From an uncultured Alphaproteobacteria bacterium (GTDB lineage: Bacteria > Pseudomonadota > Alphaproteobacteria > Methylaequorales > Methylaequoraceae), in NCBI GenBank assembly GCA_902524895.1, contig CABZFH010000002.1, positions 74,505-138,504 on the forward strand: a DNA stretch of 64,000 nt, given 5' to 3'. A model generated the notes under the pieces. That model made no database searches. It was not told the origin of the DNA and saw only the letters and a list, made by a program, of their open reading frames with translations. Made by a program: the position numbers and the translations under genes. Positions 19,087 to 44,422 of the stretch are shown here, in pieces (position 1 is the stretch's first letter; each line of letters begins with the position of its first letter).

Positions 19087-19102
19087 TGGCCACGTTTTTG
19101 CT
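19087..19102 (+). promoter_or_regulatory. Sigma54 -24/-12 promoter of the fleT-fliEFGHIJ operon
   Basis: TGGCCACGTTTTTGCT (GG-N10-GC). Confidence 0.8.
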
Positions 19103-19136
19103 TTTGTATTTGTAACAACATTAACAGGGTCAAAGT

Positions 19137-20285
19137 ATGAAGGACATAATAATAATTGAAGAATCTTTCCAGAATGCAAAAAATTTAAATGATTTTTTAT
19201 GCAATAGAAAGATTAATAGTCAACTCCAAAAAATAAATGATTTAAAAAAAATCAACTTTCCAAAGTCTGTTTTAATAGGTTCTGAAGGATTAGAAACAAT
19301 GGTTGGTGGAAAAAATAATCTATTTAAACTTTCAAGATCTATAGGTAGTACTAAAATTATAATTCTGAAATCTAAATCTCGAGAGTATAAAATTGAATCG
19401 GAATTGGGTGGAGCCTATAGTAAATATTATTTCCCTAATTTTGATGAATCGATTTATGAATTGTTAATAAATAAAATCTCAGATCAAAAATTTTCATTCG
19501 CTGATCCTAAAACTCATCAATTAATTTATCTAGCAAAAAAAGTTGCTGAAACTGATGTAACTGTTTTTATTCATGGCCCTACAGGAACAGGTAAAGAAGT
19601 TGTATCAAGTTTTATTCATAAAGAATCTAAAAGAAATGAAAAACCCTTCGTTGCTGTAAATTGTGCGGCAATACCTGAGAATATGCTTGAAGCTATGCTT
19701 TTTGGACATGAAAAAGGAGCTTTTACTGGAGCCTCAACTGCTAATAAAGGTATTTTTCGTGCAGCAGATTCAGGAACTCTTCTACTTGATGAAATTTCTG
19801 AAATGCCTTTATCTCTGCAAGCTAAATTGTTGAGGGTTTTACAAGAAAAGAAAGTAACACCAATTGGTAGTCATAGGGATATTTCAGTTGACGTAAGAGT
19901 TATTGCAACAACAAATAGAGATATGGTTAATGAAGTTAAAGAAAAAAAATTTAGAGAAGATCTTTTTTACAGACTGAATGTATTCCCCATTGAGACAACC
20001 AACTTATTTGAAAGACCTGGTGATATAATTCCAATTAGTATTACACTTTTAAAAAGACATGTCGAAAATGGTCAGCAAATACCTTTTCTGACGAAAGAAA
20101 CTCAGGATCTAATAAGAAATTATACTTGGCCAGGAAATGTTAGAGAATTAGAAAATGTTCTTCAGAGAGCATTAGTCCTATCGAATAAAAAGGTTATAAA
20201 TAAAAATGATATTATGATAGACGATATGCTTTACAAAAGTAACACTGAATCAAATAAATTATATAAACAAGCAGCACAAGGATAA
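19137..20285 (+). CDS. fleT: Sigma54 activator without a C-terminal HTH, FleT-like
   Basis: HGPTGTGKE, GHEKGAFTGA, LLDEISE, WPGNVRELEN; ends soon after the AAA+ domain; first gene of the fliE operon. Confidence 0.75.
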   Translation: MKDIIIIEESFQNAKNLNDFLCNRKINSQLQKINDLKKINFPKSVLIGSEGLETMVGGKNNLFKLSRSIGSTKIIILKSKSREYKIESELGGAYSKYYFPNFDESIYELLINKISDQKFSFADPKTHQLIYLAKKVAETDVTVFIHGPTGTGKEVVSSFIHKESKRNEKPFVAVNCAAIPENMLEAMLFGHEKGAFTGASTANKGIFRAADSGTLLLDEISEMPLSLQAKLLRVLQEKKVTPIGSHRDISVDVRVIATTNRDMVNEVKEKKFREDLFYRLNVFPIETTNLFERPGDIIPISITLLKRHVENGQQIPFLTKETQDLIRNYTWPGNVRELENVLQRALVLSNKKVINKNDIMIDDMLYKSNTESNKLYKQAAQG

Positions 20286-20289
20286 AAAA

Positions 20290-20631
20290 ATGGTAAAACC
20301 AAGAATAACAAACCTAACACCAAAAATTGTAGATACACAAAACACAGTTAAAGATCTTCAACAAAAAATTCTTAAGCAGACAAAGGAAACACTTGGCAAC
20401 CAAAACGTTTCAGAGAGTTTTTTAAGAAATTTATCTGAGGCCATACAGAACGTTTCAGATACTCAAAAAAAAAGTGCAGAATTAACTAAAAATTTTGAAT
20501 TGGGTATTGAAAATGACTTAACAAAAGTAATGATACAAAAGCAACTATCAAGCTTAGGTTTTCAAATGACTCTGAATGTAAGAAATAAAGTATTAAGTGC
20601 ATATAAAGATATAATGAATATGCCTGTTTAA
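20290..20631 (+). CDS. fliE: Flagellar hook-basal body protein FliE
   Basis: C-terminal FQMTLNVRNKVLSAYKDIMNMPV. Confidence 0.95.
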   Translation: MVKPRITNLTPKIVDTQNTVKDLQQKILKQTKETLGNQNVSESFLRNLSEAIQNVSDTQKKSAELTKNFELGIENDLTKVMIQKQLSSLGFQMTLNVRNKVLSAYKDIMNMPV

Positions 20632-20651
20632 TTAATTAATGGAAATAAAAA

Positions 20652-22370: not shown

Positions 22371-22390
22371 TGTAATATTAAGGAAAGAAT

Positions 22391-23431
22391 ATGGCAGAAC
22401 AAGTAGATCAAAATGAAGAAGAATTAACGGCTTACGAAAAGTTATCAAATACGCAAAAATGTGCAATTTTAATGATGCTTTTGGGTGAAGATGAAGCGGC
22501 AGAAATTTTAAAAAATTTAGGTCCTAAAGAAGTTCAACAATTAGGAAAAGAGATGTATACTGTCCAAGGATTAGATCAGGATACTGTTAACCAAGTTTTA
22601 GACGAATTTTTAGCTATTATCAAAACCCAAACAGACCTAGGAATGGGATCTTCGAATTATATCAGAAATGTTATGACAAAAGCACTGGGTGAGAATAAAG
22701 CTCAATCAGTTTTAGGAAGAATAACACCCACAGAAAGTGACAAACCAATTGAAATTTTGGATTGGATGGATGCTAGGTCTGTAGCAGAACTAATTTCAGA
22801 CGAACACCCTCAGATTATGTCTCTAATAATTTCTTACTTGGAAGCAGGAGTTGCTGCAGACGTTTTAGTTTTGCTGCCCGAAGAAATACAGGCTGACATA
22901 ATTCATAGAATAGCAACACTAGAAACTGTTCAACCTGACGCACTAGCAGAGCTAGAAAGGGTAATGCAGTTAAAATTTAAAACAAACACATCATTAAGGG
23001 CTTCATCCGTTGGAGGTGTGAAGGCTGCAGCTCAAATAATGAATTTCACTAAACAGAATATGGAACAAAGAATTGTGAAAAGTCTAGGTGAAAAAGATAG
23101 ACTTTTAGCTAAAGAAATTCAAGAGAGTATGTTTACATTTGATACTCTGATACTTATGGATGACCGAAGTATGCAAACATTATTAAGAAATGTTGATCAA
23201 GAAGTTTTAATTATTGCTTTAAAAGGAACAGAAGAAGACTTAAAAAAGAAGATTTTTTCATGTATGTCTCAAAGGGCTTCAGCTAATATACAGGACGAAA
23301 TGGAAGTCCTAGGTCCATTGAGACTAACAGAGGTTCAAGAGGCACAAAAAGCTATCATTAATACCGCTAGGACAATGTCTGACGAGGGATCAATCGTCTT
23401 AGCTGGAAGAGGTGGGGATGATTTTGTATGA
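22391..23431 (+). CDS. fliG: Flagellar motor switch protein FliG
   Basis: KCAILMMLLGED, EHPQ, GGVKAAA, MFTFD, GPLRLTEVQEAQ. Confidence 0.97.
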   Translation: MAEQVDQNEEELTAYEKLSNTQKCAILMMLLGEDEAAEILKNLGPKEVQQLGKEMYTVQGLDQDTVNQVLDEFLAIIKTQTDLGMGSSNYIRNVMTKALGENKAQSVLGRITPTESDKPIEILDWMDARSVAELISDEHPQIMSLIISYLEAGVAADVLVLLPEEIQADIIHRIATLETVQPDALAELERVMQLKFKTNTSLRASSVGGVKAAAQIMNFTKQNMEQRIVKSLGEKDRLLAKEIQESMFTFDTLILMDDRSMQTLLRNVDQEVLIIALKGTEEDLKKKIFSCMSQRASANIQDEMEVLGPLRLTEVQEAQKAIINTARTMSDEGSIVLAGRGGDDFV

Positions 23432-24642: not shown

Positions 24643-24646
24643 TAAA

Positions 24647-25966
24647 ATGTCTTTAATTATACAAAAAATACAACACAATATTCAGAATTACAAAACTAAT
24701 GATGACGTAATTTACAAAGGAAAAGTATCGAAATTTGACGGAAAAATTGTCGAATGTGATGGTTTTCCAGTTCCTATTGGTACGATCTGTAAGATTGAAA
24801 GTAACGATGACAAAACTGTTACTGGTGAGATTATTGGTTTTAGAGATAACAAAAACCTTTTGGCCGTTCATAATCAAAATGCAAACATTATAGCAGGAGC
24901 AATTGTTGAAGTTATTGATTCAGGCGTAAATATAGAAGTTGGAGAAAATTTATTAGGAAGAGTAATTGATGCCTTCGGAAACCAAATAGATGGGAAAGAT
25001 TTGATAGTTGGAAACTCAAAATGGCCTATTAATGGAAAAAATATTAATCCTATGAATAGAAAGCCTATAAATGAACCAATAGATGTAGGGATTAAAGCAA
25101 TAAATTCTTTATTAACAGTTGGAAGAGGACAAAGAATTGGTATTATTGCTGGTTCTGGAGTCGGTAAATCAGTACTTTTGGGAATGATGAGTAGATTTAC
25201 AAATGCTGACATAGTTGTTGTAGCTTTAATTGGTGAAAGAGGTAGAGAAGTAGGGAGTTTTGTTAATCAAATTTTTAATGATAGTGCCAAAAAAAAAACT
25301 TCAATAGTTGCTGTTCCAGCAGACATGTCTCCCCTACTAAGAATTAGAGGAGCACAAAGAGCTACCTCGATAGCAGAGTATTTTAGATCAAAAGGTAAGA
25401 ATGTACTTTTAATAATGGATTCTTTGACGAGAATTGCACACGCAAAAAGAGAGGTGGGTCTGGCTCTGGGAGAACAACCTACATCAAAAGGTTATCCACC
25501 TTCAGTTATCTCAATGCTACCAAATTTAATTGAAAGAACTGGGGCTGGCAGCAAAAATGAAGGTTCTGTTACCGCTTTTTATACTATACTAGCTGATTCA
25601 GATGATACTAACGATCCGGTTGTTGATACTGCGCGTGCTATTCTTGATGGACATATAGTATTATCAAGAGAACATGCGCAAATGGGAATTTTCCCAGCAA
25701 TTGATATCAATCAGTCATTAAGTAGAGTTATGAATTCAATTGTAGACAAGAAACATAAAGACAAGGCAAATTTCATTAAAAAGCTTTATTCATTATATAT
25801 GGAAAATAGAGAACTAATTCTGATGGGTGGATATACATCAGGTCAGAATGAGGATATTGACAAAGCGCTCAATAATTGGCCTAAGATTTGCAATTTAATA
25901 AAGCAAGCAGAGGACGAACGAACAAATTTCAATGACAGTCTTAACAGTATGAATAATATAAATTAA
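24647..25966 (+). CDS. fliI: Flagellar export ATPase FliI
   Basis: AGSGVGKS, LIGERGREV, MDSLTR, KGYPPSV, ILDGHIVLSR. Confidence 0.97.
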   Translation: MSLIIQKIQHNIQNYKTNDDVIYKGKVSKFDGKIVECDGFPVPIGTICKIESNDDKTVTGEIIGFRDNKNLLAVHNQNANIIAGAIVEVIDSGVNIEVGENLLGRVIDAFGNQIDGKDLIVGNSKWPINGKNINPMNRKPINEPIDVGIKAINSLLTVGRGQRIGIIAGSGVGKSVLLGMMSRFTNADIVVVALIGERGREVGSFVNQIFNDSAKKKTSIVAVPADMSPLLRIRGAQRATSIAEYFRSKGKNVLLIMDSLTRIAHAKREVGLALGEQPTSKGYPPSVISMLPNLIERTGAGSKNEGSVTAFYTILADSDDTNDPVVDTARAILDGHIVLSREHAQMGIFPAIDINQSLSRVMNSIVDKKHKDKANFIKKLYSLYMENRELILMGGYTSGQNEDIDKALNNWPKICNLIKQAEDERTNFNDSLNSMNNIN

Positions 25967-26386: not shown

Positions 26387-26402
26387 TGGCATTGGATTTG
26401 CA
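26387..26402 (+). promoter_or_regulatory. Sigma54 promoter of fliKLMN
   Basis: TGGCATTGGATTTGCA (GG-N10-GC). Confidence 0.8.
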
Positions 26403-29801: not shown

Positions 29802-29815
29802 GTCAAATACTTGAC
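29802..29815. promoter_or_regulatory. FleQ-type enhancer box upstream of fliO
   Basis: GTCA-AATACT-TGAC, about 76 bp upstream of the fliO sigma54 motif. Confidence 0.7.
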
Positions 29816-29849: not shown

Positions 29850-29862
29850 AATCAGTATCTTA
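29850..29862 (+). promoter_or_regulatory. IHF site between enhancer and fliO promoter
   Basis: AATCAG-TATC-TTA matches WATCAR-N4-TTR, preceded by an A-tract. Confidence 0.5.
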
Positions 29863-29890: not shown

Positions 29891-29906
29891 TGGCCATGTT
29901 CTTGCA
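29891..29906 (+). promoter_or_regulatory. Sigma54 promoter of fliOPQR-flhB
   Basis: TGGCCATGTTCTTGCA (GG-N10-GC); SD AAGGAG follows. Confidence 0.82.
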
Positions 29907-32136: not shown

Positions 32137-33291
32137 ATGGCAGAAGATAAAGATGAAAGTCAGGAAAAATCCCAAGCACCTAGTTCACGTAAATTAGAAA
32201 AGGCTGCTGAAGAAGGAAGGGTTGTTCAATCTAAAGAAATGTATGTTTTTACTATTCTTTTTGCAGGAGTATTCCTAATGTACTCGTTACCTTTGGTAGT
32301 AAATGACTTTTTGATGAGTTTAAAATCATTTTTACAATTTGGACCAGAATTGAGAAATGGGCACTCTCCTTTGAAATCAATTGAAACAGCAATTAAAATG
32401 GTTGTAAAAATAACCATCATATTTGGTCTGCCATTATGTGTGGTTTGCATTTTAACTCAATATGCTGTTGGTGGTGGTATAAGATTTTCCTTTAAACCAA
32501 TGGAACCTAAATTAAGCAAGATTAATCCAATAAGTGGTTTAAAAAAAATTTTTTCAATTAAAGGACTAATAGAGTTATTTAAAGCTTTAATTAAAGTTTT
32601 CTTCCTTGGAGGAATAACAATTTTTGTTTTTAGTGAATATCTTCCAGAAATAACGCACCTTTCTCATCCAAATCTTTTTTCTGCTTTAAAAAAGCTATTA
32701 TCTTTTTTTCCAATACTTCTAGCTGCTCTACTAGTGGGCTTAGCAGTTATTGGTGCGATAGATTTTGCTTGGCAAAAATATGATTTTATAAAACAACTAA
32801 GAATGTCTCATCAGGATATTAAAGATGAGTATAAAGAAACAGACGGTCAACCAGAAGTTAAACAAAAAATTAGAAAACTTCAAATGCAAGCAGCTAATAA
32901 AAATAATAGAGAAAATGCTTCAATTGAAAATATGGATAAGGCCACTGCTATCATAACCAATCCAACTCATTTTGCAGTTGCTTTACAATATGAGGTTGGA
33001 GAATCTGATGCTCCCAAAATCATAGCAAAAGGACGTGGAAAAATTGCTGAAAGAATCATAGATGAGGCAAAGCTAAGAAATATTGGAAAATTGGAAAGTC
33101 CAGACTTAGCAAGAGCACTGTATTACACAACAGAAATTGGAGAAGAAGTTATGAGTAAACTATATAATGCAGTAGCAATAGCCTTGGCTTATATTTATAA
33201 AATTAATAGTGGAGAATCAATTGAAAAACCATTAATTAATATACCTGAAGAACTAATATTTGATGAATTTGGAAATCAAAATGATAAATAG
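32137..33291 (+). CDS. flhB: Export switch protein FlhB
   Basis: RMSHQDIKDEYKETDGQPEVK, NPTH cleavage motif, PDLARALY. Confidence 0.98.
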   Translation: MAEDKDESQEKSQAPSSRKLEKAAEEGRVVQSKEMYVFTILFAGVFLMYSLPLVVNDFLMSLKSFLQFGPELRNGHSPLKSIETAIKMVVKITIIFGLPLCVVCILTQYAVGGGIRFSFKPMEPKLSKINPISGLKKIFSIKGLIELFKALIKVFFLGGITIFVFSEYLPEITHLSHPNLFSALKKLLSFFPILLAALLVGLAVIGAIDFAWQKYDFIKQLRMSHQDIKDEYKETDGQPEVKQKIRKLQMQAANKNNRENASIENMDKATAIITNPTHFAVALQYEVGESDAPKIIAKGRGKIAERIIDEAKLRNIGKLESPDLARALYYTTEIGEEVMSKLYNAVAIALAYIYKINSGESIEKPLINIPEELIFDEFGNQNDK

Positions 33292-33493
33292 AAATATAAG
33301 TCAATTAATTATAACTTTTGCATTTTTTTACAGCTTCATTGTTTGCCATCTTGAAGCATTGGAAAAATACCAAAGAGGAGATTTTGTTATGAGTTATATC
33401 TTGTGGATATGCGCTTTATTTTCTTTTTTAGGTGCTTTGAGATTTAGGATAGCAAAAATAATTAATAGTTTAATAAAAAAAAAAGATGAATAA
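33281..33493 (+). CDS. Small hypothetical two-TM protein
   Basis: ATG overlaps the flhB stop; two hydrophobic stretches; overlaps the next ORF. Confidence 0.55.
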   Translation: MINRNISQLIITFAFFYSFIVCHLEALEKYQRGDFVMSYILWICALFSFLGALRFRIAKIINSLIKKKDE

Positions 33494-33704
33494 ATTCTCA
33501 GAAGATTGTAAAATATGCAAACATTTGTATGTGACTTATAAACCAAATTTTCCTTGGGGTTGTCGTGCATTTGGATTTATTTCAAAAAATTACCCTTATT
33601 CTCTTGTTTATAAGACTTCTGGCATGAAATGTGCGTTATTTTCAATGAACATTAAAAATAATAATAATGAACGAAAAGATAAAAAAAAAGGGAGACTTGC
33701 ATGA
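33486..33704 (+). CDS. Small four-cysteine protein of unknown function
   Basis: CKICKH...FPWGCRAFGF...SGMKC pattern; translationally coupled on both sides. Confidence 0.7.
   Translation: MNKFSEDCKICKHLYVTYKPNFPWGCRAFGFISKNYPYSLVYKTSGMKCALFSMNIKNNNNERKDKKKGRLA
33620..33635 (+). promoter_or_regulatory. Candidate internal sigma54 promoter for the MotF-like, hypothetical and RRF-like genes
   Basis: TGGCATGAAATGTGCG (GG-N10-GC), 66 bp before ATG 33701. It lies inside coding sequence and could be coincidental. Confidence 0.45.
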
Positions 33705-34426
33705 ATAATGATTTGAATACAATGCAGGAAAGTATTAAAATAGCCTTGGATGCTGCAGATGCTGCAACTGACGTTACTTCAGAATATAAAAGAATGAAAA
33801 ATGAATATATTAAAGCGGAGCAAAAAGTGAAAGAAATTCATAAATATACGACTATTATCTTCTCGGCTTCTATTGGTACAGCAATTGTGGCTATTTTACT
33901 AACAGGAGTTTTATATTTCAAATCTTTATCAGAATTGGAGGAAATGACAAATACCAGCCGTGAAGCACTTGTAGTATTTGCGGAAAACGTTGAATCTGTA
34001 AATAGTGCAGTTGACAATATGAATAGAAGTCTTGAAAAACACTCAGATTTAGTTAACGCAAATGCAGAAATAAAGAACAAGCTCTCAGAACTTACCTCTG
34101 CTATTGCGCAGAATGATAAAAATCTAATGGTAAGTTTGTCGAAAGAGATATCAAATCTATCAAAGTCTGTTTCAACTTCAATCAAAGTAGAAGCAGGTAA
34201 GTTGAGTTCTAATATTCAAGAAGGTGACATATTGACATCTGCTAAAATTAGTAAAGCAATAGATAAATTGATTTCTGATAATAAGAAAAATTCAAATGTA
34301 AAAATGTTAAAAGAATTGTCAAATTCTACTTCAAGTTTAACAACAGCCTTAAAAGCCATTTCCTCTCAAAATAAATTGCTTGTTAAAGAAATAACTGAGC
34401 AAAAAGAAAGTATAACTTTTCCTTAG
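33701..34426 (+). CDS. Single-TM coiled-coil protein, probable MotF-like fla1 motor accessory
   Basis: 241 aa, one TM at about residues 51-73, downstream of flhB. Size, topology and position fit my recollection of R. sphaeroides MotF; not verified by search. Confidence 0.55.
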   Translation: MNNDLNTMQESIKIALDAADAATDVTSEYKRMKNEYIKAEQKVKEIHKYTTIIFSASIGTAIVAILLTGVLYFKSLSELEEMTNTSREALVVFAENVESVNSAVDNMNRSLEKHSDLVNANAEIKNKLSELTSAIAQNDKNLMVSLSKEISNLSKSVSTSIKVEAGKLSSNIQEGDILTSAKISKAIDKLISDNKKNSNVKMLKELSNSTSSLTTALKAISSQNKLLVKEITEQKESITFP

Positions 34427-34434
34427 ATATTTCG

Positions 34435-35241
34435 ATGAATAATGAGTCTATAGAAGTAACCGATCAAAAAAAGTTACAAGAAAATCAAGGTTTTCTTCTT
34501 AAAATTGAAAGTATTAGAAGGAAAACTCATTCTTTTTCTCTTATGCTAAAAGAAGACGATATCATCGTCGCACTTAACAATCAATTTTATGTGACTGGGG
34601 AGAATCAATTGATCGATGAGTTAATTGAACTTCGGAAAAATAATGATAAAGCAATACTGACTATTAAAAGAGATGAATATTTTTTTGATATAATTGTAAG
34701 AAATAGTCTTGGTTGTAAATTTTCAAGTTTATCTTTAGAAGAAACAAAAAATATTCAAACGCAATTTGCCACTAAGAAAGTTTTTGATATTGAAGAAATG
34801 AGAGAATTCAATATTTTTAGAGATTTGAAAAATAACTTTGAATGTATAGAAGATACCTTTTCAATAGTTGCAGGGTTATTTCCTCCAGCTTGGTTAGCAT
34901 ATGAACAAAAATGGTGGGTACTTAGTTTTTTCTCAATTTTCAGTTTGCTTTTACTGTCTATAAACCCATGGATTTTTGCAATTGGTTGGATAATAGTTTC
35001 AATTTATTGTTATAAAGCTCAAAAAAATCTGATCTTTGGATTTACATTGCTATCAGGCAAAGCTCTGTCAATGAAAATCGCTGCAACTAGCATTCACGAA
35101 GCTCATAAAATTATTAGATACTTTTATCCAAAGTCCAAATTTAAATATTCTAGATTAGATAGTCCTCAAATGGTTGAGGGAGAAGATAATTTTAGTAAAG
35201 ATAAAAAAAATATTTCTGAAACTGAAAATGCTTTGATATAA
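34435..35241 (+). CDS. Hypothetical membrane protein, possible PDZ-like N-terminus and DUF2628-like TM region
   Basis: LKEDDIIVALN...LTIKRD resembles PDZ; LFPPAWLAYEQKWW precedes TM helices. Confidence 0.5.
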   Translation: MNNESIEVTDQKKLQENQGFLLKIESIRRKTHSFSLMLKEDDIIVALNNQFYVTGENQLIDELIELRKNNDKAILTIKRDEYFFDIIVRNSLGCKFSSLSLEETKNIQTQFATKKVFDIEEMREFNIFRDLKNNFECIEDTFSIVAGLFPPAWLAYEQKWWVLSFFSIFSLLLLSINPWIFAIGWIIVSIYCYKAQKNLIFGFTLLSGKALSMKIAATSIHEAHKIIRYFYPKSKFKYSRLDSPQMVEGEDNFSKDKKNISETENALI

Positions 35242-35247
35242 TAAGTT

Positions 35248-35844
35248 ATGGCCGAACAATACTCTATTCAAGCTGAAACTCTAATGAAAGCTGCTGTTGA
35301 AGATTACTTAGAAATCATAAAAACAGTCCAGTCTTCCAATGCAAATATGGCTGTTATTAAATCTGTCAAGGTTACAATTAATGGAAAACCAAGAAGATTA
35401 GTAGATATTGGAGACCTAAGAACAGGAGAAAATGATAATAAACTTCAGGTCTTAGTTTTTAATACAGATCATATTGAATTGCTTGTTGATCAAATTAATG
35501 AAGCGGGTTTTGAGACTAATGTTGATGGTCAATTTGTTAATATTGATGTGCCTGATCCAACTTTTAAACAACTTATGGAGGTAGTTGACGATCTTCAAAG
35601 GAAAAAAAACTCCGCACTTGGAAGACTTACAAAAGCCAAATCAGAAGCCACAACCAGGGCTCGAACCGCTGTTGAAAATGAGTTTATTGAGCAAGCAGTA
35701 GCGAGTCAGGCCTCTAAAAAATGTGATGTTTTTTTTGGACAGTATTCTGACGAAATTAATTTACATACAACGACAAAAATTAAAGAAATACTCGGAGATG
35801 AATTTTACGCAAAGTTCGAAGAAGAACAAGCTATGTTTGATTAA
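35248..35844 (+). CDS. Divergent ribosome-recycling-factor (RRF) fold protein, not the housekeeping Frr
   Basis: Manual alignment to E. coli Frr holds along the whole length, but the IRTGRA, TEERR and RNVRR motifs are replaced. Confidence 0.75.
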   Translation: MAEQYSIQAETLMKAAVEDYLEIIKTVQSSNANMAVIKSVKVTINGKPRRLVDIGDLRTGENDNKLQVLVFNTDHIELLVDQINEAGFETNVDGQFVNIDVPDPTFKQLMEVVDDLQRKKNSALGRLTKAKSEATTRARTAVENEFIEQAVASQASKKCDVFFGQYSDEINLHTTTKIKEILGDEFYAKFEEEQAMFD

Positions 35845-35846
35845 GT

Positions 35847-36542
35847 TTATGCCTTAATACTTAAAGAATTTTTAACTTTTGCTGTATCTTTGTTTGTATT
35901 GTAAAAACTTCGTATTTGAGAAAAATTAAACATTTCTAATCTTCTCACTTTATCTGAATCTTCTTCAAAGTTTTTCTTTGGGTAGTTGAATTCCAATATA
36001 CGACCATTTTTCTTAAAAACTTTTGAATTTTGATGATTACTTTCAAAGCTTTTCGTTTCGGGAAAAATATTTCTTAACTCTTCTTTACTATTATTTTCTT
36101 GAACTTCTTGGGTAGACAATTTATTAGTTTGAGTGATTTTTTTTTTATCATTTAAATTTGCAACTTCTGTATTTTCTTTTTCTTTCCAAATTTTACTAAT
36201 TCCAGTAAACTCTAAAAATAATTCTGTCGGTGTACTGTCAAATAATTTATTAAAAATCCAGTTACCAACCCCAGCTATTGCACCTATTGGCCCTCCATAG
36301 AGAAAGCCTCCTAACCCGTTTTGAACCATATCTCTATCTGAATCCTTGTTTTCAGAATTAATGCTGGAATATATACCGCTAATTAATGGCAAATTTTGCA
36401 AAGGATTGATTGCCCCTTTAATCCATTTCAAAAAACTAAAGGTTGAGTCTTCATTATTTTCTTTTAAATTTTTTTTGCTTAATGAAATTTTTTCATTATC
36501 AAGTTTTTTAGAATGGTAAAATGGACTCTTTTCTATAAACAT
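35847..36542 (-). CDS. Conserved-looking alphaproteobacterial hypothetical protein
   Basis: INPLQNLPLISGIY...GGFLYGGPIGAIAG motif; starts 6 bp downstream of motB. Confidence 0.65.
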   Translation of the reverse strand: MFIEKSPFYHSKKLDNEKISLSKKNLKENNEDSTFSFLKWIKGAINPLQNLPLISGIYSSINSENKDSDRDMVQNGLGGFLYGGPIGAIAGVGNWIFNKLFDSTPTELFLEFTGISKIWKEKENTEVANLNDKKKITQTNKLSTQEVQENNSKEELRNIFPETKSFESNHQNSKVFKKNGRILEFNYPKKNFEEDSDKVRRLEMFNFSQIRSFYNTNKDTAKVKNSLSIKA

Positions 36543-36548
36543 TTTTCT

Positions 36549-37727
36549 TTAATAATTTATTTCAATTTCTATTCTTCTGTTTTTTTCTCTACCTTCTGAA
36601 GTGTCATTTGAACCTAATGGTTGCGTTTCACCATAGCTAATTGCCTTCATTCTTTTTGGTTGAAGTTTACCTGTAGATGATAATTCCTGAACAACAGATG
36701 AAGATCTAGCCGCTGCTAAATCCCAGTTATCTCTATATATTGATCCAAATATTAATGGTGTATCATCAGTATGACCTGACACTAAAATTTCACTTTTACC
36801 TTTTTTATTGAGGTCGGCAATTTTTGCCATAATTTTCTTAGCTTTAGATGTTAATTCGGCAGAGCCAGATTTAAACGCACCACCTGAACCCACTGTTATG
36901 ATTACTTTATCTTCATCTCTGTCAACATTAATCAAGCCTTCTCCAATTTCTTTTCTAAGAGCTATTTTAAATTTATCTTCTGCTATTTGAGCTTTTTTTT
37001 CTTCTTCTTTAGAAATGTCTGGAGATTCTCCAATATTGTTTCCATCTGAAGATTCAGATTCTAGCTTTCCTTTACTGGCTGCAGCTGTCGCTAATTGAGC
37101 AAGTTTCTGTTCTAAGCCACCAAACAAAACTTCTGATTCTGATTTTCCAGACGCAGACTTTACTGTTTCTATTGAGTTAAGAGTTTCTTGCAGTAAATTT
37201 GGTAAATCTTTTTCCTCAGCTTCAAGCGGAGTGAAATTTACAATTACTTTATCTGCTAATACCTCAACCTCAATATCACCCCTAGCAATAGCATCTTTTA
37301 TATTTTGTGCTAATTCTGTGGCATCCTCGTTTTGTCCATCATCTTTGGTATTATCTTGAGTTTTAGTTTTAAGCTCAACATTCTTTTGATCAGTTTCAGT
37401 GGTCTGCTGTTTTAAGTTTTCTTGCACGGCCGGCGTTGGATTAGGACTAAAACTTAACGATAATAATGTTGTCCCTTTAGGTTGTTCAACAACTGGAATT
37501 ATCCTTTGAATACCAAATGCATTTTTCATGCTTCCACTAATTTGCTTGAATTTAGGAACATTAAATTCTGCGAAAGAAAGAATTAAGACGAAAAATGCCA
37601 TCAACAATGTTGCCATATCTGCAAAAGTTGCCATCCACGCAGGGGCACCTTTTGGAGGACATTCTGGGCATTCGTGTTCCTCTTCATCTTTAGTTTCTTT
37701 TTTTTTTTCTTCTTTTTCCTCAGCCAT
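36549..37727 (-). CDS. motB: Flagellar stator B subunit (PomB/MotB-like)
   Basis: WMATFADMATLLMAFFVLILSF TM with the conserved Asp; OmpA-like domain GHTD...NWDLAAARS...NRRIEI. Confidence 0.95.
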   Translation of the reverse strand: MAEEKEEKKKETKDEEEHECPECPPKGAPAWMATFADMATLLMAFFVLILSFAEFNVPKFKQISGSMKNAFGIQRIIPVVEQPKGTTLLSLSFSPNPTPAVQENLKQQTTETDQKNVELKTKTQDNTKDDGQNEDATELAQNIKDAIARGDIEVEVLADKVIVNFTPLEAEEKDLPNLLQETLNSIETVKSASGKSESEVLFGGLEQKLAQLATAAASKGKLESESSDGNNIGESPDISKEEEKKAQIAEDKFKIALRKEIGEGLINVDRDEDKVIITVGSGGAFKSGSAELTSKAKKIMAKIADLNKKGKSEILVSGHTDDTPLIFGSIYRDNWDLAAARSSSVVQELSSTGKLQPKRMKAISYGETQPLGSNDTSEGREKNRRIEIEINY

Positions 37728-37750
37728 TTATCTTTTATCTTTCCTGTAAT

Positions 37751-38518
37751 TTATGCCGCAGCCTCTATTAGTTTTTGTTTTTCTTTTGGAGGAAGATTAG
37801 CAACAAGTTGATCTTGAATGTTTCTTCCACTTTCTCCTCGAGAAATTAACTGTAAGCCGGTAATTATCATTTCTCTATAAGTCACTTCATAAGTTGTGTA
37901 GCCTTTCATTTTCACAACAATTGGCATAAAAATAGTGTTTGCAATCATAGCTCCATATAGAGTGGTCAAAAGGGCAACGGCCATTGCAGGCCCAATAGCC
38001 TTTGGGTCAGCCATGTTACCTAACATTGCTACTAATCCAACTAAAGTTCCAATCATGCCCATTGCTGGCGCAATATCAACCCAAGCTTGAGCAACTCCAG
38101 TTGATTTTGCATGTCTACCTTGCATCGCTTTTAATTCTTTTTTTAATTGTATGGTTAATTTCTCTTCATCAGCACCATCTACAAGCATCTGCAAACCACT
38201 ATCAAAAAATGGATCTGGGGTTTCTTGACCTTCAAGAGCCATCATTCCATCTTTTCTGGCTATTCCAGCGAGCTCAACTATTCTGGTGATTAATTCGTCC
38301 ATTTTTTTAATAGGCGGTTTAAAGGCTTTAGCCATAGCCCCGAATGACCCTAAGAAAAGTGGTAATGGCGCAGTATACATTACAGCGAAAAATGTTCCAC
38401 CAAAAACAATTAAAATTGAAGGTATGTCAACGTACATACCTATTCCGCCTGCAGAAACCATTGCACCTGCGATCATACCTATAGTTCCTAAAAGTCCAAT
38501 GAGTGATGCTATATCCAT
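37751..38518 (-). CDS. motA: Flagellar stator A subunit, short PomA-like type
   Basis: ARKDGMMALE, APAMGMIGTLVGLV, IGPAMAVALLTTLYG; 255 aa. Confidence 0.96.
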   Translation of the reverse strand: MDIASLIGLLGTIGMIAGAMVSAGGIGMYVDIPSILIVFGGTFFAVMYTAPLPLFLGSFGAMAKAFKPPIKKMDELITRIVELAGIARKDGMMALEGQETPDPFFDSGLQMLVDGADEEKLTIQLKKELKAMQGRHAKSTGVAQAWVDIAPAMGMIGTLVGLVAMLGNMADPKAIGPAMAVALLTTLYGAMIANTIFMPIVVKMKGYTTYEVTYREMIITGLQLISRGESGRNIQDQLVANLPPKEKQKLIEAAA

Positions 38519-38569
38519 AATTTATTTTCCATTAATTATTTTTAATTTATATATATATTTATAATATCT

Positions 38570-38585
38570 TGGTATAAAAACTGCA
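38570..38585 (+). promoter_or_regulatory. Sigma54 promoter facing the DUF1566 gene
   Basis: TGGTATAAAAACTGCA (GG-N10-GC); shares its -12 GC with the motA promoter. Confidence 0.55.
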
Positions 38586-38597
38586 ACTTTGATACCA
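38582..38597 (-). promoter_or_regulatory. Sigma54 promoter of motAB
   Basis: Minus strand TGGTATCAAAGTTGCA (GG-N10-GC). Confidence 0.75.
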
Positions 38598-38655
38598 AAG
38601 TAGTAAAAATTTATTATTTAGTAATTCAAATATATTTATCGTATTATTAAATTCT

Positions 38656-39165
38656 ATGAAAAAAAAACAAAATCATATCATTAATAAAATTAAAATACTT
38701 TGTATTTTTTCTATTATTACAACACTCAATTTTTTGTTTAGTCATAATCTTAAAGCCAGAGATTACATTGATAAGGGACATATTGTTATTGATCTAAAAA
38801 ATAAAGTTGAATGGCTTAAATGTTCAGTAGGACAAGTTTGGGATACTGAAAAATGTACTGGTGATTCAATAAAAGTTTCCTTAAAAGAAGCTGAAGATTT
38901 GTTACCACAAGTAAATCAAGAACTTGGAGGTGAATGGAGACTACCTAATAAAAAAGAATTAGTAAGTATTATTTGTAAAATATGTTCCGGTGCGAAAATA
39001 AATGAAACTTATTTTCCTAACTCTCAAGCTGATATTTATTGGACATCACAAAGAAATTGGTGGTCTCCTCAATTTTTCTGGTCAGTTAATTTTATGACTG
39101 GTCATGCTTATGGTAGATTCGTTCCAGAAAAAAAATTATTCGTCAGATTTCTCAGAGACAGATGA
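38656..39165 (+). CDS. DUF1566 (Lcl C-terminal domain) exported protein
   Basis: DLKNKVEWLKCSVGQVW...WRLPNKKELVSII...FP...YWTS...WSVNF...G...VR. Confidence 0.85.
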   Translation: MKKKQNHIINKIKILCIFSIITTLNFLFSHNLKARDYIDKGHIVIDLKNKVEWLKCSVGQVWDTEKCTGDSIKVSLKEAEDLLPQVNQELGGEWRLPNKKELVSIICKICSGAKINETYFPNSQADIYWTSQRNWWSPQFFWSVNFMTGHAYGRFVPEKKLFVRFLRDR

Positions 39166-39381
39166 TTTTTGTTTTGTAAAATATTGAAAAATTTTTCCGA
39201 TAAAAACTAAAATTCCAACAGATAAAATTGCTATAGCTACATTCCATGAATTAATGTATGCTAAAAGATGGAGTTTATCTGTGAGCGTAAATGAAACAAT
39301 TATTAAAAATAAAACTGAAATCAAAAAAACTCTCAGAAAAAAACACAATCTACAGTTGTTTTCTTTATCTTTGTATGACAT
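39136..39381 (-). CDS. Small two-TM hypothetical protein
   Basis: Two hydrophobic helices; overlaps the end of the SPOR gene. Confidence 0.5.
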   Translation of the reverse strand: MSYKDKENNCRLCFFLRVFLISVLFLIIVSFTLTDKLHLLAYINSWNVAIAILSVGILVFIGKIFQYFTKQKSSVSEKSDE

Positions 39382-39907: not shown

Positions 39908-40008
39908 TACTTAATAATAACATTAAAAAATATTTAAAAGTAGTTTTTTTCCTAGAAATCTGGCTTTTTTTATTTTCAATTTTTTAAAGATATAATTTAT
40001 AAAAGTTA

Positions 40009-40022
40009 GTCATTTTTTTGAC
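40009..40022. promoter_or_regulatory. FleQ-type box upstream of rpoN, overlapping a possible sigma70 -35
   Basis: GTCA-TTTTTT-TGAC; TTGACG at 40018-40023 then TAGTTT after 18 bp. Confidence 0.55.
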
Positions 40023-40099
40023 GTAACCTAAATGTCAAATTTAGTTTTTGCAATTTGTAAGAAAAAAGTGTGAAATTATAAAATAGAAAGGAATAAGTT

Positions 40100-41551
40100 A
40101 TGCAGATTTCACAAAATCTTAAACTAAAGCAAAGTCAATCGTTAGTTATGACACCTCAATTGCAACAAGCGATAAAATTACTACAATTGAATAATGTAGA
40201 ACTTTGTGAGTTAGTAGAAAAAGAATTAGAAGAAAATCCATTTTTAGAAAAAGATAACGAAACTGATCTTATCGAACAAAGAAATAACGAATATACTGAA
40301 AATGTTGATGAGGCATTTCAAAATGGTGAGTCACAATATGAAGATCCATCAAAAGGAGATTATGAGAACAGATGGGATCAAGATAACAATCTTTCTTCTA
40401 AATCCAATAACTTTGATACTATCGACCCAGGTTCAATTGCTGAACAAACTATCTCAGAGAAAGTTACTCTTAAATCCGTTTTGATGGAACAAGCAAATAT
40501 TGCATTCAAGACATCAAAAGAAAAAATAGTCTCTGAACTCTTGATAGATTACATTCAACCTTCAGGTTGGCTAACAACAGATTTAATTGAACTTCAGAAT
40601 ACTATAGGCTGTGATGAACAAACTTTAAATAATGTTTTATTTAAAATGCAAAATTTTGAACCAACGGGTGTATTTGCAAGGAACCTTACAGAGTGTTTAA
40701 GAATTCAATTGAAAAACAAAGATCTTTTGACAGATGGTATAAGTTTATTAATCGAAAACTTTGATTTATTAGCAAAAGGAGAAATTAAAAATCTCTGCAA
40801 AATTTGTAGTATGTCAGAGAATGAATTAACAAAAAGTATAAAAATAATAAAAACACTTAATCCTAAACCTGGTTCTTTATATTCAGAAGATAATGATCAA
40901 ATATTTCATCCTGACGTTATCGTTACCCAAAAAAACAATCAATGGGAGGTTGAGTTAAATAACGGAACGCTTCCAAAGATTATTGTTAATGAAAATTACA
41001 TAAAAGAATTAGAGAAATTAGGTGGAAATGATGCTGACAAAAAATTCATTTCTGAGTCAGTTAATTCTGCAAAGTGGTTAATGAAGGCAATTGAACAAAG
41101 AAATTTAACCACATTGAAAATTAGTTCGGAAATAGTTGAACAACAAAAATTATTTTTTGAAAAAGGTGTTTCTTACTTAAAACCCATGATTTTAAAAGAT
41201 GTAGCAAAGAAAATAAAAATGCACGAAAGTACTGTTAGTAGAGTTACAACTGGAAAATTAATGTTAACACCTAGGGGTATTTTTGAAATGAAGCATTTTT
41301 TTAGTGCCACCATCAATGGTACTATTGAAGGAGAAAGCCACTCAGCTGCTTCAGTGAGAGAAACTCTCAAAAATTTAATAAGTAATGAACCGCTTCATAA
41401 TCCCTTATCTGATGAGCTTTTAGTGTTAAAACTACAAAATGAAGGGATAAATCTAGCTAGAAGAACTGTTGCAAAATATAGAGAATTACTCAATATACCA
41501 TCATCATCCGAAAGAAGAAAAATGATGAAAATTCAAAGCATACATATTTAG
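40100..41551 (+). CDS. rpoN: RNA polymerase sigma-54 factor
   Basis: MTPQLQQAIKLLQL, ENPFLE, HESTVSRV, RpoN box ARRTVAKYRE. Confidence 0.98.
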   Translation: MQISQNLKLKQSQSLVMTPQLQQAIKLLQLNNVELCELVEKELEENPFLEKDNETDLIEQRNNEYTENVDEAFQNGESQYEDPSKGDYENRWDQDNNLSSKSNNFDTIDPGSIAEQTISEKVTLKSVLMEQANIAFKTSKEKIVSELLIDYIQPSGWLTTDLIELQNTIGCDEQTLNNVLFKMQNFEPTGVFARNLTECLRIQLKNKDLLTDGISLLIENFDLLAKGEIKNLCKICSMSENELTKSIKIIKTLNPKPGSLYSEDNDQIFHPDVIVTQKNNQWEVELNNGTLPKIIVNENYIKELEKLGGNDADKKFISESVNSAKWLMKAIEQRNLTTLKISSEIVEQQKLFFEKGVSYLKPMILKDVAKKIKMHESTVSRVTTGKLMLTPRGIFEMKHFFSATINGTIEGESHSAASVRETLKNLISNEPLHNPLSDELLVLKLQNEGINLARRTVAKYRELLNIPSSSERRKMMKIQSIHI

Positions 41552-41733
41552 TTTAAAACAGAATTTAGTATTTTTAGTTTATGGCACTCTGAATCTAAAA
41601 AATAAGACAATGGATGCCTTTCTTTTGATTTTTCTTTATCATTAGAGTCAAATTTTACGATCTCTACAATAGGAGAAAGAGTTGTCTTATAATTATCGAT
41701 GTTGTTAGTCAAAGATTTATTTTTTTCTAACAT
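41548..41733 (-). CDS. 61-aa orphan protein with its own sigma54 promoter
   Basis: SD GGAGG at 41740-41744 and a sigma54 motif at 41762-41777; stop overlaps the rpoN stop. Confidence 0.65.
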   Translation of the reverse strand: MLEKNKSLTNNIDNYKTTLSPIVEIVKFDSNDKEKSKERHPLSYFLDSECHKLKILNSVLN

Positions 41734-41761
41734 TTTATACCTCCATTATCTTATTAGATGG

Positions 41762-41777
41762 TGCATTTTACGTGCCA
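41762..41777 (-). promoter_or_regulatory. Sigma54 promoter of the 61-aa ORF
   Basis: Minus strand TGGCACGTAAAATGCA; near-consensus -24 element TGGCACG. Confidence 0.78.
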
Positions 41778-41780
41778 AGC

Positions 41781-42428
41781 TTAATTGAAATTTTTCTTCA
41801 AGTCTTGACTAAGTTGTTCTTTAAAGAACTGTATTTTCTCTTTGTTTTCTCGAAAAAATAATTTTTGGGACTGATTATAGGATTTAAGATTTATTTCACT
41901 TTTCTTTTTATTCTGTCGAACATATCTCCAATTTTTATGAACTTTAGTTAAATAATTTTTCATCCTTTTTGGATTTGATGAGTGATATTTAGCAATTGCT
42001 TTATTCCAACTATTATGTTTATTAAAAAGTTTCTTTAAATATAAAGCTGCCCATTCAATGTTTTTTTTTGGGTCTGAGATTTCCTCAATATTTTTAAAAT
42101 TTTTTTTATGGTATTTATAACTAATTTGCATGCAACCAATATCTATATTTTTTTGAGACTTAATTTTCTTTTCTAAAAGAACCAATAAATCTTTTTCATT
42201 TTTAAAAAAAAATGATTCGCCTGAAATATTTAGCGACCAAGGCCAGGCCACATACTTTCCACCAACTGTTCTTCCTGTCTCAGTTAAAGAAATAGCCTCT
42301 AAAAGTTTATTTGGAATTTTATGTTTTTTTTCAATATTATTAATTAATTTAGTGCAATCATAAATTGGTGAAGAATATAAAAAGCTTGTATTAAAAATTA
42401 ACAATAACAAAATAACTGTCTTAATCAT
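41781..42428 (-). CDS. Lytic transglycosylase (SLT domain), exported
   Basis: Signal peptide; AISLTETG (catalytic Glu), WPWSLN, IDIGCMQISYKYH, AIAKYHS. Confidence 0.88.
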   Translation of the reverse strand: MIKTVILLLLIFNTSFLYSSPIYDCTKLINNIEKKHKIPNKLLEAISLTETGRTVGGKYVAWPWSLNISGESFFFKNEKDLLVLLEKKIKSQKNIDIGCMQISYKYHKKNFKNIEEISDPKKNIEWAALYLKKLFNKHNSWNKAIAKYHSSNPKRMKNYLTKVHKNWRYVRQNKKKSEINLKSYNQSQKLFFRENKEKIQFFKEQLSQDLKKNFN

Positions 42429-42439
42429 CACACATTAAT

Positions 42440-42455
42440 TGCAATTCAAATGCCA
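42440..42455 (-). promoter_or_regulatory. Sigma54 promoter of the lytic transglycosylase gene
   Basis: Minus strand TGGCATTTGAATTGCA (GG-N10-GC). Confidence 0.78.
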
Positions 42456-42462
42456 GCTAAAT

Positions 42463-43773
42463 TTATTTTATGATTGAGCTACTTACTAGATTTCTTCCAA
42501 TAGAAATGAAATTGTAAGGATTTACAGATTTATTATTAACCTTTATTTCATAATGAAGATGTGCCCCTGCAACTCTTCCTGTAGCACCCATTTTTCCAAT
42601 GATATATCCTTCCTCAACATAATCACCTTTTTTGACCATCAGTTTATGCAAATGTCCGTATAAAGTAACCACACCATGTTTGTGTTTTAATTTTATAACG
42701 TTTCCAAAAGATCCATATCTTCCAGAAAATAAAACTACACCATTGGCTGATGCCCTGACTTCTTCTTGCCATGTTCCAGCCATATCTATGCCTTTGTGCA
42801 TTTGCTTTTTTTTTGTTTTAGGATGAATTCTCATACCAAAAGGGCTTGATACATAGTAATATTGCATCGGAGGTTTTAATGGAAGAAAAATCATTGCTTC
42901 TTTAAGTTTATCTAATAAGTTGAACCTGTAGGAAATCTCTTCAATTAACTCTGAATCTTTAGACTCGAATAAGTTAGAGTTTTCTAACAATTCAATGTTA
43001 GATAAATCTAAGTTGTCAGGTTTTAACTTTAGTGTTTTGAAGACATTAACTAGTTCCAAAATTTCTAGGTCAATCGTCTTGCTGAATTGAATCATCTTGG
43101 TTTTATTATTACGTGGGGCAGCAAATGGTAAAACAGGAAGATTATTATATGCATATATTTCTTCCAAACTATCATTTTTTTCTTTTATTTCTAATTTTAA
43201 AGCATTGGATTTTTTTAAAGTCTCTTCGATTGGAACCATATGAGGGTTAGCCAAACCTGAAAATTGATCAAAAATTAATTCGTCTGAAAGTTTCGATTCA
43301 TCAACAATTGAAAATTCAAAACTTTTAAAATATGATCCAACTTTTTTAAAACTATCTCTCAATCTATCGTTTAAACTATTTTTTTCTGTTTCAATGGATT
43401 CAATTTCAATAATTGAAATATTTTCATTAGTTTTTGACTCAATAACGCTTCCTGCTATGTCTTTTAAAGCCTCTACTTCAGATTCAGTGAATTGTTGTTT
43501 TTGAGTAAAATTTCCGTGTAATACTACTGCTGTATAAATATTAAGTGCACCAAAAAAGACAAATTGCATTACCTTAAAAGCTACTAAAAGTGATAATAAA
43601 AAAGCTGAAATATAGTGCTTTATATTAAAAACAATTTCTATAGGACCTCTTTTCGTAAAAAAAAGAAACCTTCTTTCTTTTAATAATTCTTGCCAATTTT
43701 TTTGTACGAATAAGTCACCGAATCTTTTACTTGATTTTAGTTTATTTTCTATATTGTCTTTTAAGGTAGTCAT
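42463..43773 (-). CDS. M23-family zinc metallopeptidase with an N-terminal TM
   Basis: SSPFGMRIHP, HKGID (HxxxD), YGHL and HLHYE (HxH). Confidence 0.92.
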   Translation of the reverse strand: MTTLKDNIENKLKSSKRFGDLFVQKNWQELLKERRFLFFTKRGPIEIVFNIKHYISAFLLSLLVAFKVMQFVFFGALNIYTAVVLHGNFTQKQQFTESEVEALKDIAGSVIESKTNENISIIEIESIETEKNSLNDRLRDSFKKVGSYFKSFEFSIVDESKLSDELIFDQFSGLANPHMVPIEETLKKSNALKLEIKEKNDSLEEIYAYNNLPVLPFAAPRNNKTKMIQFSKTIDLEILELVNVFKTLKLKPDNLDLSNIELLENSNLFESKDSELIEEISYRFNLLDKLKEAMIFLPLKPPMQYYYVSSPFGMRIHPKTKKKQMHKGIDMAGTWQEEVRASANGVVLFSGRYGSFGNVIKLKHKHGVVTLYGHLHKLMVKKGDYVEEGYIIGKMGATGRVAGAHLHYEIKVNNKSVNPYNFISIGRNLVSSSIIK

Positions 43774-44367
43774 TTATTTAAGATACAATACCACGACCAG
43801 CATAATATTTGTCATAAGTTGCATAAGCATTATAAGCAACATAAGTTTCCAAGAAATTGGATTATTTACATTTAAACTAAACTGTGGAAATGGCTGGTTC
43901 TTATTTTCTAAGTTAATATTCTTTTTATTTTCATCTACCAAATTATTAACGTGATAATCTTTGAATGTTTTACTATGGTCCTCCTTTTTTTTTGTATTAT
44001 ACTTTGATGAAAAATCTTGAGTAACATCTTCGAAAGGAGATGAAGTTGATAAAGGTTGTTTTTCAATAGTTTTTTTAAAGTTTTTTTCTTCTGAAACTTC
44101 AGTTGTATTTTTTAAATTTCTTTCTGCTGAAATTACCGTTGTATTTTTTAATCTTTCATTGCTACCTTCTACAAATAAATCATTTCGTTGTCTAGGTTGG
44201 TTACTTTCAGTTCCTAAATCTTTTTCATTATTAGTTTTTTTGATATTAGTTTTTTTTTCCGAACTTTTGATTACATTTTTATTTAAATTATCCTGATTAG
44301 GTTTATCAGTGATTTGAGTTCGCATTCTCTCAATTCGTTCTCTAATATCTACAACTTGCTCAGCCAT
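43774..44367 (-). CDS. Hypothetical low-complexity protein with a C-terminal TM anchor
   Basis: Charged, disordered-looking body; ends ISWKLMLLIMLMQLMTNIMLVVVLYLK; abuts the M23 gene. Confidence 0.7.
   Translation of the reverse strand: MAEQVVDIRERIERMRTQITDKPNQDNLNKNVIKSSEKKTNIKKTNNEKDLGTESNQPRQRNDLFVEGSNERLKNTTVISAERNLKNTTEVSEEKNFKKTIEKQPLSTSSPFEDVTQDFSSKYNTKKKEDHSKTFKDYHVNNLVDENKKNINLENKNQPFPQFSLNVNNPISWKLMLLIMLMQLMTNIMLVVVLYLK
44080..44151. repeat. Imperfect 36-bp tandem duplication in frame
   Basis: GTTGTATTTTTTAA at 44102 and 44138; encodes LKNTTVISAERN / LKNTTEVSEEKN. Confidence 0.6.
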
Positions 44368-44406
44368 TATAATCTTTCAAATATTATTCTTATTAGTTAT
44401 TAAATA

Positions 44407-44422
44407 TGCACATGTTACGCCA
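44407..44422 (-). promoter_or_regulatory. Sigma54 promoter of the hypothetical-M23 operon
   Basis: Minus strand TGGCGTAACATGTGCA (GG-N10-GC). Confidence 0.65.

Follow-up and report, generated by a model that had tools for sequence, protein, structure and literature searches.

In this study, we analyzed a 64,000-nucleotide (nt) stretch of DNA from an uncultured alphaproteobacterium of the family Methylaequoraceae (hereafter the window; GenBank assembly GCA_902524895.1, contig CABZFH010000002.1, positions 74,505 to 138,504, i.e., C2:74505-138504), which carries a flagellar gene cluster with the sigma-54 gene rpoN inside it. Nine GG-N10-GC motifs in this cluster are probably functional sigma-54 promoters that, together with a tenth site at 25877 and about ten others elsewhere in the genome, would form a two-tier hierarchy of the FleQ/FleT type. 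The activity of each promoter, its activator and its timing are inferred from sequence. As a whole, this picture is well supported, and as a variant of the known FleQ/FleT flagellar hierarchy it is fairly ordinary.

Sigma-54 motifs in the flagellar cluster

A sequence-only reading of this DNA had listed nine motifs of the -24/-12 type, and we found TGG-N9-TGC at all nine places: on the plus strand at 19087, 26387, 29891, 33620 and 38570 (facing fleT, fliK, fliO, o241 and a DUF1566 gene, respectively), and on the minus strand at 38583-38597, 41763-41777, 42441-42455 and 44408-44422 (facing motA, the small open reading frame (ORF) o61, an SLT-domain gene, and o197 followed by an M23 peptidase gene). 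The minus-strand numbers of that reading, which are kept for the features below, are lower by one because the A of TGCA was counted in. At these sites GG and GC are exactly 10 nt apart, in a context resembling TGGCAC-N5-TTGCW. Eight motifs were indeed intergenic and correctly oriented, with a start codon 12-86 nt downstream of each; the ninth, at 33620, lies within the conserved 72-amino-acid (aa) ORF o72, 81 nt ahead of o241.

The supposition that such motifs are unlikely by chance in AT-rich DNA was borne out by shuffle, Poisson and weight-matrix statistics. The whole window contains 32 matches, compared with 11.3 +/- 3.3 in dinucleotide shuffles. In the intergenic DNA between 17 and 46 kb (1,052 nt, 20% GC) there are eight matches versus 0.03 expected (Poisson p 3e-17), and shuffling of the same 1,052 nt yielded a mean of 0.02 matches and a maximum of 2. 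The weight-matrix scan that had been proposed was run over the whole genome (score >=15) with a matrix built only from 51 sites of related genomes, whose consensus is TGG(C/T)A-N7-TGC(A/T). Twelve of its 37 matches were intergenic, correctly oriented and less than 150 nt from a gene start, versus 0.87 expected (p 3e-11).

For footprinting, we compared the region from 11 genomes of the family, representing eight other genera with RpoN 62-72% identical; gene order was the same across these relatives, small ORFs included. With differing spacer letters, GG-N10-GC recurred at the orthologous position in 6-11 relatives per site: 6/6 for fleT, 8/8 for fliK, 9/9 for o241, 9/9 for fliO (six of them as CGG), and 11/11 for each of motA, o61, SLT and o197-M23, the DUF1566 site being present in 8/11. 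No motif was found in about 95 control regions upstream of ten other genes at the same loci (fliE, fliL, fliN, motB, o231, o268, the RRF-like gene, the M23 gene, bac2 and bac3). Conservation at orthologous positions, combined with empty controls, represents the strongest evidence that the motifs are likely to be functional.

Gene order and sigma-54 machinery

The assembly comprises 1.43 Mb with 28.9% GC and is 84% complete. Genes were called as longest ORFs, and those between 17 and 46 kb were identified by Pfam profile matches. Their order is fleQ (-); fleT-fliE-fliF-fliG-fliH-fliI-o135 (+); fliK-fliL-fliM-fliN (+); fliO-fliP-fliQ-fliR-flhB-o77-o72 (+), then o241-o268 and the RRF-like gene (+); o231-motB-motA (-); the DUF1566/Lcl_C gene (+); o81-o180 (-); rpoN (+); o61 (-); SLT (-); M23 and o197 (-); and three bactofilin genes (+).

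For sigma-54, a single gene was found in the genome, rpoN (40100..41551, plus strand). Four proteins of the genome contain a sigma-54 interaction domain, and three of them carry the GAFTGA motif of enhancer-binding proteins, namely FleQ, FleT and, encoded on contig 4, an NtrC-like protein; the fourth, NtrX-like, lacks GAFTGA. The fleQ gene (17869..19011, minus strand; likely true start Met22 at 18948) encodes an AAA+ sigma-54 interaction domain with GAFTGA and a C-terminal HTH_8 domain, and has no receiver domain. The product of fleT (19137..20285, plus strand) is an enhancer-binding protein with GAFTGA and no helix-turn-helix (HTH) domain.

Proposed early promoters and FleQ-type boxes

The predicted promoter of fleT-fliEFGHI-o135 (19087..19102, plus strand; TGGCCACGTTTTTGCT) is preceded, about 90 nt upstream, by a GTCA-N6-TGAC palindrome resembling a FleQ box (18989..19002); in 6/6 relatives an exact box, variable in its spacer, occupies this place. 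A second box (29802..29815) stands upstream of the predicted promoter of fliOPQR-flhB-o77-o72 (29891..29906, plus strand), and an IHF-like site, AATCAGTATCTTA (29850-29862), lies between the two. Both boxes are 80-100 nt ahead of their promoters. Seven exact boxes were found genome-wide, four of them at fleQ/fleT, at fliN/fliO, at flhA/flgP (where the box is downstream of the flhA promoter) and directly ahead of rpoN. Among the 23 exact boxes in about 300 kb of DNA from relatives, 22 fell at the three of these places that are in the window, again with variable spacers. At the sequence level the box equals GTCaNTAAAtTGAC, the consensus proposed for Pseudomonas aeruginosa FleQ (as quoted in PMC6120874). 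We infer that the boxes mark an early class (fleT, fliO and flhA) together with rpoN.

The rpoN box (40009..40022, about 80 nt upstream of the gene) is present in 11/11 relatives, and no sigma-54 motif was found near it or in the rpoN upstream region (40009-40100). This region is strongly conserved in 11/11 relatives, the box being followed by TGTCAAATTAAAGTTTTGCA and then by TTGTGAAAT. Such an arrangement suggests that FleQ may act on rpoN from a non-sigma-54 promoter, either as feedback or as feed-forward. For this AT-rich DNA, a sigma-70 scan was uninformative.

In the proposed early step, the HTH-bearing FleQ would sit on the fleT and fliO boxes, 80-100 nt ahead of the respective promoters, and on that at flhA, with the DNA possibly bent at the IHF-like site between box and promoter at fliO. 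FleQ would thereby switch on the export operons, the MS/C-ring operons and fleT.

Proposed late promoters

No GTCA-N6-TGAC box was found at the fliK, o241, motA, DUF1566, o61, SLT and o197 promoters. These box-less promoters would constitute the late class and drive fliK-fliLMN, o241-o268 with the RRF-like gene, motAB-o231, DUF1566, o61, SLT and o197-M23, as well as the flagellin gene, a rod gene and sugar-modification genes elsewhere. FleT, having no DNA-binding domain, would fire them alone or with FleQ. The early/late split mirrors the Fla1 scheme of Rhodobacter sphaeroides.

The predicted promoter of fliK-fliL-fliM-fliN (26387..26402, plus strand) is followed by an ATG only 14 nt past the -12 C, so that fliK in this genome comes close to the spacing of the SLT gene described below. 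The flagellin and fliK promoters share an 18-nt stretch, TGGCATTGGATTTGCAGA, and the flagellin gene (C13:16813-16832, outside the window) has the best-scoring sigma-54 motif in the genome. Other flagellar or likely flagellar targets among the roughly ten further sites are a flgF-like rod gene, flhA, a gene for a FlgP-like lipoprotein, and genes for a DegT aminotransferase, a methyltransferase and two TPR transferases. The sigma-28 gene fliA is present, in the order flhA-flhF-flhG-fliA. Two nitrogen promoters, those of glnB-glnA and amtB, share a distinct signature, TTTCCTGCATA, that is unlike the flagellar sites.

Two sites overlap coding sequence. The o241 promoter (33620..33635, plus strand) is embedded in o72, 81 nt before o241, and overlaps its codons Ser-Gly-x-x-Cys-Ala. 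This glycine is encoded by GGC in 10/10 genomes despite a share of 9% for GGC among Gly codons, and other conserved glycines of o72 use GGT, GGA and GGC freely. Moreover, two distant alphaproteobacterial families (43-47% GC, o241 35-37% identical) share the order flhB-(o77)-o72-o241-o268-motB and keep TGGCA(T/C)G-N-AATGTGCA within o72. The other site, TGGCCTAAGATTTGCA (25877..25892, plus strand), had not been listed before; it lies at the 3' end of fliI, 90 nt before o135, which is fliJ-like by position only. It is kept in 8/8 relatives, where its Cys codon is always TGC (23% of Cys codons genome-wide), and it is a probable, not certain, tenth sigma-54 site.

The genes o241, o268 and that for the RRF-like 198-aa protein (33701..35844, plus strand) follow the o72 site, o241 and o268 being part of the conserved flhB-to-motB block. 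The 241-aa product of o241 has a single transmembrane segment (a hydrophobic stretch at about residues 49-73, read by eye) and a coiled coil. MotF of R. sphaeroides is a protein of about 24 kDa with one transmembrane segment near residues 54-74 and a large periplasmic C-terminus (PMC7277832), which o241 fits in size and topology; the MotF-likeness is one of topology only. Searches for the identity of o241 returned only 'hypothetical' relatives, its Pfam and NCBIfam matches being weak and meaningless. Outside its own family, a sample of about 290 alphaproteobacterial genomes contained relatives in only 4 (four other families, all genomes of 2.0-2.5 Mb), always in the flhB-motB block where inspected. 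Because these relatives are so sparse, homology to the MotF of Rhodobacteraceae is doubtful.

The promoters of motA-motB-o231 (38582..38597, minus strand; genes 35847-38518) and of the DUF1566/Lcl_C gene (38570..38585, plus strand; gene 38656-39165) lie on opposite strands and share a central TGCA, with the common GC at 38583-38584 (TGGTATAAAAACTGCAACTTTGATACCA). As one GC serves both sites, only one holoenzyme could be bound at a time. The motA half of this dyad is invariant, and the DUF1566 half lacks the -24 GG in two genera (g2 and g13). Bidirectional or shared-element sigma-54 promoters were not found in the literature searched, which is no proof of novelty.

Predicted envelope-related and small-protein targets

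The predicted SLT promoter (42440..42455, minus strand) precedes a gene at 41781-42431 whose likely ATG is at 42428 and whose product has a hydrophobic N-terminus and an SLT domain (E 1.8e-8). In 12/12 genomes this ATG is located 12-13 nt past the -12 C, which is the predicted +1/+2. Since there is no room for a Shine-Dalgarno sequence, a leaderless SLT mRNA is implied, and the fixed spacing provides indirect support for the predicted start site. The flagellar muramidase SltF from R. sphaeroides combines a Sec signal with an SLT domain, and its gene is part of a sigma-54 operon (PMC7277832). The SLT protein matches SltF in architecture and context, having an N-terminal hydrophobic stretch, an SLT domain, flagellar neighbours and a sigma-54 motif. 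SltF acts alongside a single-domain FlgJ devoid of a muramidase; in the present genome (84% complete), neither a FlgJ rod-binding domain nor a flagellar glucosaminidase domain was detected, and the sole glucosaminidase is in a non-flagellar context.

Further along the minus strand, a predicted promoter at 44407..44422 serves o197 (43774-44367) and the M23 gene (42463-43773). The M23 domain covers residues 324-419 (E 2e-30) with the motifs HKGID and HLH (HxxxD and HxH), and an N-terminal hydrophobic stretch makes the protein appear bitopic. By architecture and bactofilin neighbourhood, the gene is a predicted LmdC-like endopeptidase gene. LmdC is a cell-shape endopeptidase paired with a bactofilin, and in Rhodospirillum rubrum and Hyphomonas neptunium the pairing represents a cell-shape module rather than a flagellar one (PMC10945521). 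Both o197 and o241 are mostly disordered or coiled coil. The three bactofilin genes (44511..45653, plus strand) are divergent from o197-M23, and no sigma-54 motif was found at their operon in this genome. A motif at bac1 is present in 5/11 relatives from three genera (L048, L049, L054, L056 and L057); to judge from this distribution, the edge of the regulon is evolving. In the spacer between o197 and bac1, about 45 nt upstream of the o197 promoter, there is a conserved block TTATAATGCTTA(T/A)CACAAAAA (44430-44470 and relatives).

The o61 gene (41548-41733) has a predicted promoter at 41762..41777 on the minus strand and a ribosome-binding site, and encodes a real conserved protein of 56-61 aa. 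Comparison with Pfam and with PDB sequences gave it no match above chance, and a profile built from 11 sequences did no better. It runs towards rpoN and the two stop codons overlap by 4 nt, an overlap that is not conserved (a gap of 30-170 nt in relatives). No terminators were predicted between o197 and rpoN.

The sequence-only reading had proposed that the DUF1566 gene, o61, SLT, the o197-M23 operon and probably the genes from o241 to the RRF-like one are co-regulated with the flagellum, and that the regulon thereby extends to non-flagellar genes. The co-regulation is well supported by a conserved sigma-54 element at each gene or operon, less so for DUF1566, whose site is present in 8/11 relatives and lost in two genera. 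As for the extension, SLT is SltF-like and o241-o268 belong to the flhB-motB block, which leaves at most DUF1566, o61 and o197/M23, with no known flagellar role, as candidate non-flagellar members. These peripheral targets would supply the envelope with functions linked to motility, through a lytic transglycosylase of SltF type whose mRNA would be leaderless, an M23 endopeptidase resembling LmdC and encoded beside bactofilins, a periplasmic DUF1566 protein and a microprotein. A more far-reaching combination is conceivable for this abundant marine lineage, though less likely than not: enhancer-less late promoters would be fired from solution by FleT, the late class would have captured a bactofilin-linked LmdC-type endopeptidase and a leaderless SLT gene so that wall and shape remodelling is timed by flagellar assembly, and the dyad would impose an either-or choice between motAB and DUF1566.

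Alternative explanations

Several observations weigh against the two-tier hierarchy. The fleT and fliO sites of this genome carry C where 43 of the 51 related sites carry A, and the DUF1566 site is lost in 3/11 relatives. Conservation of the sites at 33620 and 25877 is partly due to coding, because both overlap conserved codons. No upstream word shared by the late class was detected among 7-mers present in at least 70% of the orthologous regions of at least three promoter groups, and FleT/FleQ rather than NtrC was assigned to this class by elimination and context. Chance matches or by-products of base composition would be favored only by the shortness of the core (six fixed bases); in view of the p values of 3e-17 and 3e-11, the cross-genus conservation and the zero control matches, this explanation is refuted for the set as a whole and its likelihood is practically negligible. 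It is also improbable that the o197-M23, DUF1566 and o61 promoters are fired by the NtrC-like activator, or by none, and are hence nitrogen-responsive or poised but silent. A third GAFTGA activator does exist and no FleQ-like box or common enhancer word occurs near these promoters, but the distinct signature of the two clear nitrogen promoters is absent here, and the sites, which are intergenic and correctly oriented, are conserved with a constant spacing to the start codons. Furthermore, fliK, motA and flagellin are box-less yet certainly flagellar, and a missing box is therefore a property of the late flagellar class. NtrC-type palindromes were not found near the promoters, in a test without power because none was found even at glnB. 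In favor of silent promoters, many sigma-54 sites of Escherichia coli are reportedly non-productive or have an unclear output.

For DUF1566 in particular, the plus-strand half of the dyad (38570-38597) might be the symmetric partner of the motA promoter, either a protein-binding palindrome or a relic, and no promoter of its own. The -24 GG is missing in three of the 11 relatives though the DUF1566 gene stays, the -12 context is CTGCA instead of TTGCA, and the one shared GC makes simultaneous occupancy impossible. We nevertheless regard this as rather unlikely, since exactly 10 nt separate its GG from the shared GC, six genera retain TGGTAT despite a varying spacer, and the orientation and the distance of 57-72 nt to the DUF1566 start fit a promoter. 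A stronger contender, although somewhat short of an even chance, is that there is no extension of the regulon: SLT, o241-o268, DUF1566, o61 and o197-M23 would all be parts devoted to the flagellum or accessory to its motor (for instance a hydrolase for rod penetration, stator helpers or a periplasmic scaffold) and hence unannotated members of an ordinary regulon. The SltF precedent, a flagellar enzyme with Sec signal and SLT domain in a sigma-54 operon, is in line with this possibility. So is the failure to find a FlgJ rod-binding or flagellar glucosaminidase domain, by which SLT would be needed. In addition, two distant families share the order flhB-o77-o72-o241-o268-motB, and all the genes lie between fleQ and the bactofilins in perfect synteny. 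Against it, an M23 protein of LmdC architecture stands beside bactofilins, a pairing that forms a cell-shape module in R. rubrum and H. neptunium; no link between DUF1566 and flagella was found in the literature, and o61 belongs to no known family. A phyletic test of M23 against flagella was uninformative because every near-complete genome of the family is flagellated, FliP being present in all nine that are >=90% complete.

Comparison with known systems

In the Fla1 system of R. sphaeroides (Cereibacter), FleQ activates fleT-fliEFGHIJ, and FleQ/FleT, as a hetero-oligomer, activates later genes, including the class III motAB (PMC7277832). The likeness to our cluster is close: fleQ is divergent from a sigma-54-driven fleT-fliEFGHIJ operon, FleT has no DNA-binding domain, rpoN is housed among the flagellar genes, motAB and a muramidase gene of the SLT type are under sigma-54, and there is a FlgP-like LPP20 lipoprotein. 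On the other hand, there is one rpoN here and four there (RpoN2 being that of Fla1); motAB is within the cluster here; SLT has its own promoter and a leaderless start, whereas its counterpart is in the flgG operon; and flagellin has a sigma-54 motif here despite the presence of fliA. The setting also differs, with 29% GC, a 1.4 Mb genome and an uncultured marine family.

The polar-flagellum cascade of Pseudomonas and Vibrio runs from FleQ/FlrA through FleSR/FlrBC to FliA. With it, the present system shares GTCA-N6-TGAC boxes at the fleT/fliE, fliO and flhA promoters (binding being predicted here), the order flhA-flhF-flhG-fliA and an flhA box downstream of the promoter. However, there is no FleS/FleR pair, FleT taking that place, and FleQ lacks the N-terminal FleQ/REC domain.

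Sigma-54 is said to be a 'controller of the bacterial exterior', and the RpoN regulons of Campylobacter and Helicobacter include flagellar co-expressed non-flagellar genes. Envelope and peptidoglycan genes on a flagellar sigma-54 regulon are a feature of such systems and, as predicted from the motifs, of the present one, but the cargo here consists of an LmdC-like M23 gene beside bactofilins, a DUF1566 protein and a 61-aa protein. In comparison with the BacA-LmdC module (PMC10945521), an apparently bitopic protein with a C-terminal M23 domain and adjoining bactofilin genes are common to both, whereas M23 here is preceded by a tail-anchored 197-aa protein and a conserved sigma-54 promoter, and is divergent from three bactofilin genes instead of being co-operonic.

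These data provide a nearly complete sequence-level wiring diagram of motility for a small-genome marine family known only from single-cell and metagenome assemblies, and indicate that neither the FleQ/FleT scheme nor the FleQ box of Pseudomonas type is confined to model organisms, both extending well past them. They also nominate o61, o72, o241, o268, DUF1566 and o197 as motility-linked candidates. The fixed leaderless SLT spacing and the shared-GC dyad lend themselves, as compact systems, to tests of how sigma-54 start sites are selected and how promoters compete.

Other observations

The family comprises 42 species genomes of 0.8-2.0 Mb. RpoN is 97% identical in the closest named relative, the single-cell genome 'uncultured Alphaproteobacteria AG-337-B08', and homologues of one local protein bear the NCBI label 'Rickettsiales bacterium TMED...'. 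Downstream of flhB come two small conserved ORFs (33260-33704): o77 is hydrophobic, and o72 has CxxC...GC...C motifs. The family retains both, and the distant families retain o72 as well. The RRF-like 198-aa gene (35248-35844), which ends the o241 operon, is a weak paralogue of ribosome recycling factor (RRF), scoring 42.7 bits with Pfam RRF and 25.6 bits with TIGR frr against a cut-off of 149. Its product is 59-77% identical within the family, and the gene is absent from the corresponding block of the two distant families.

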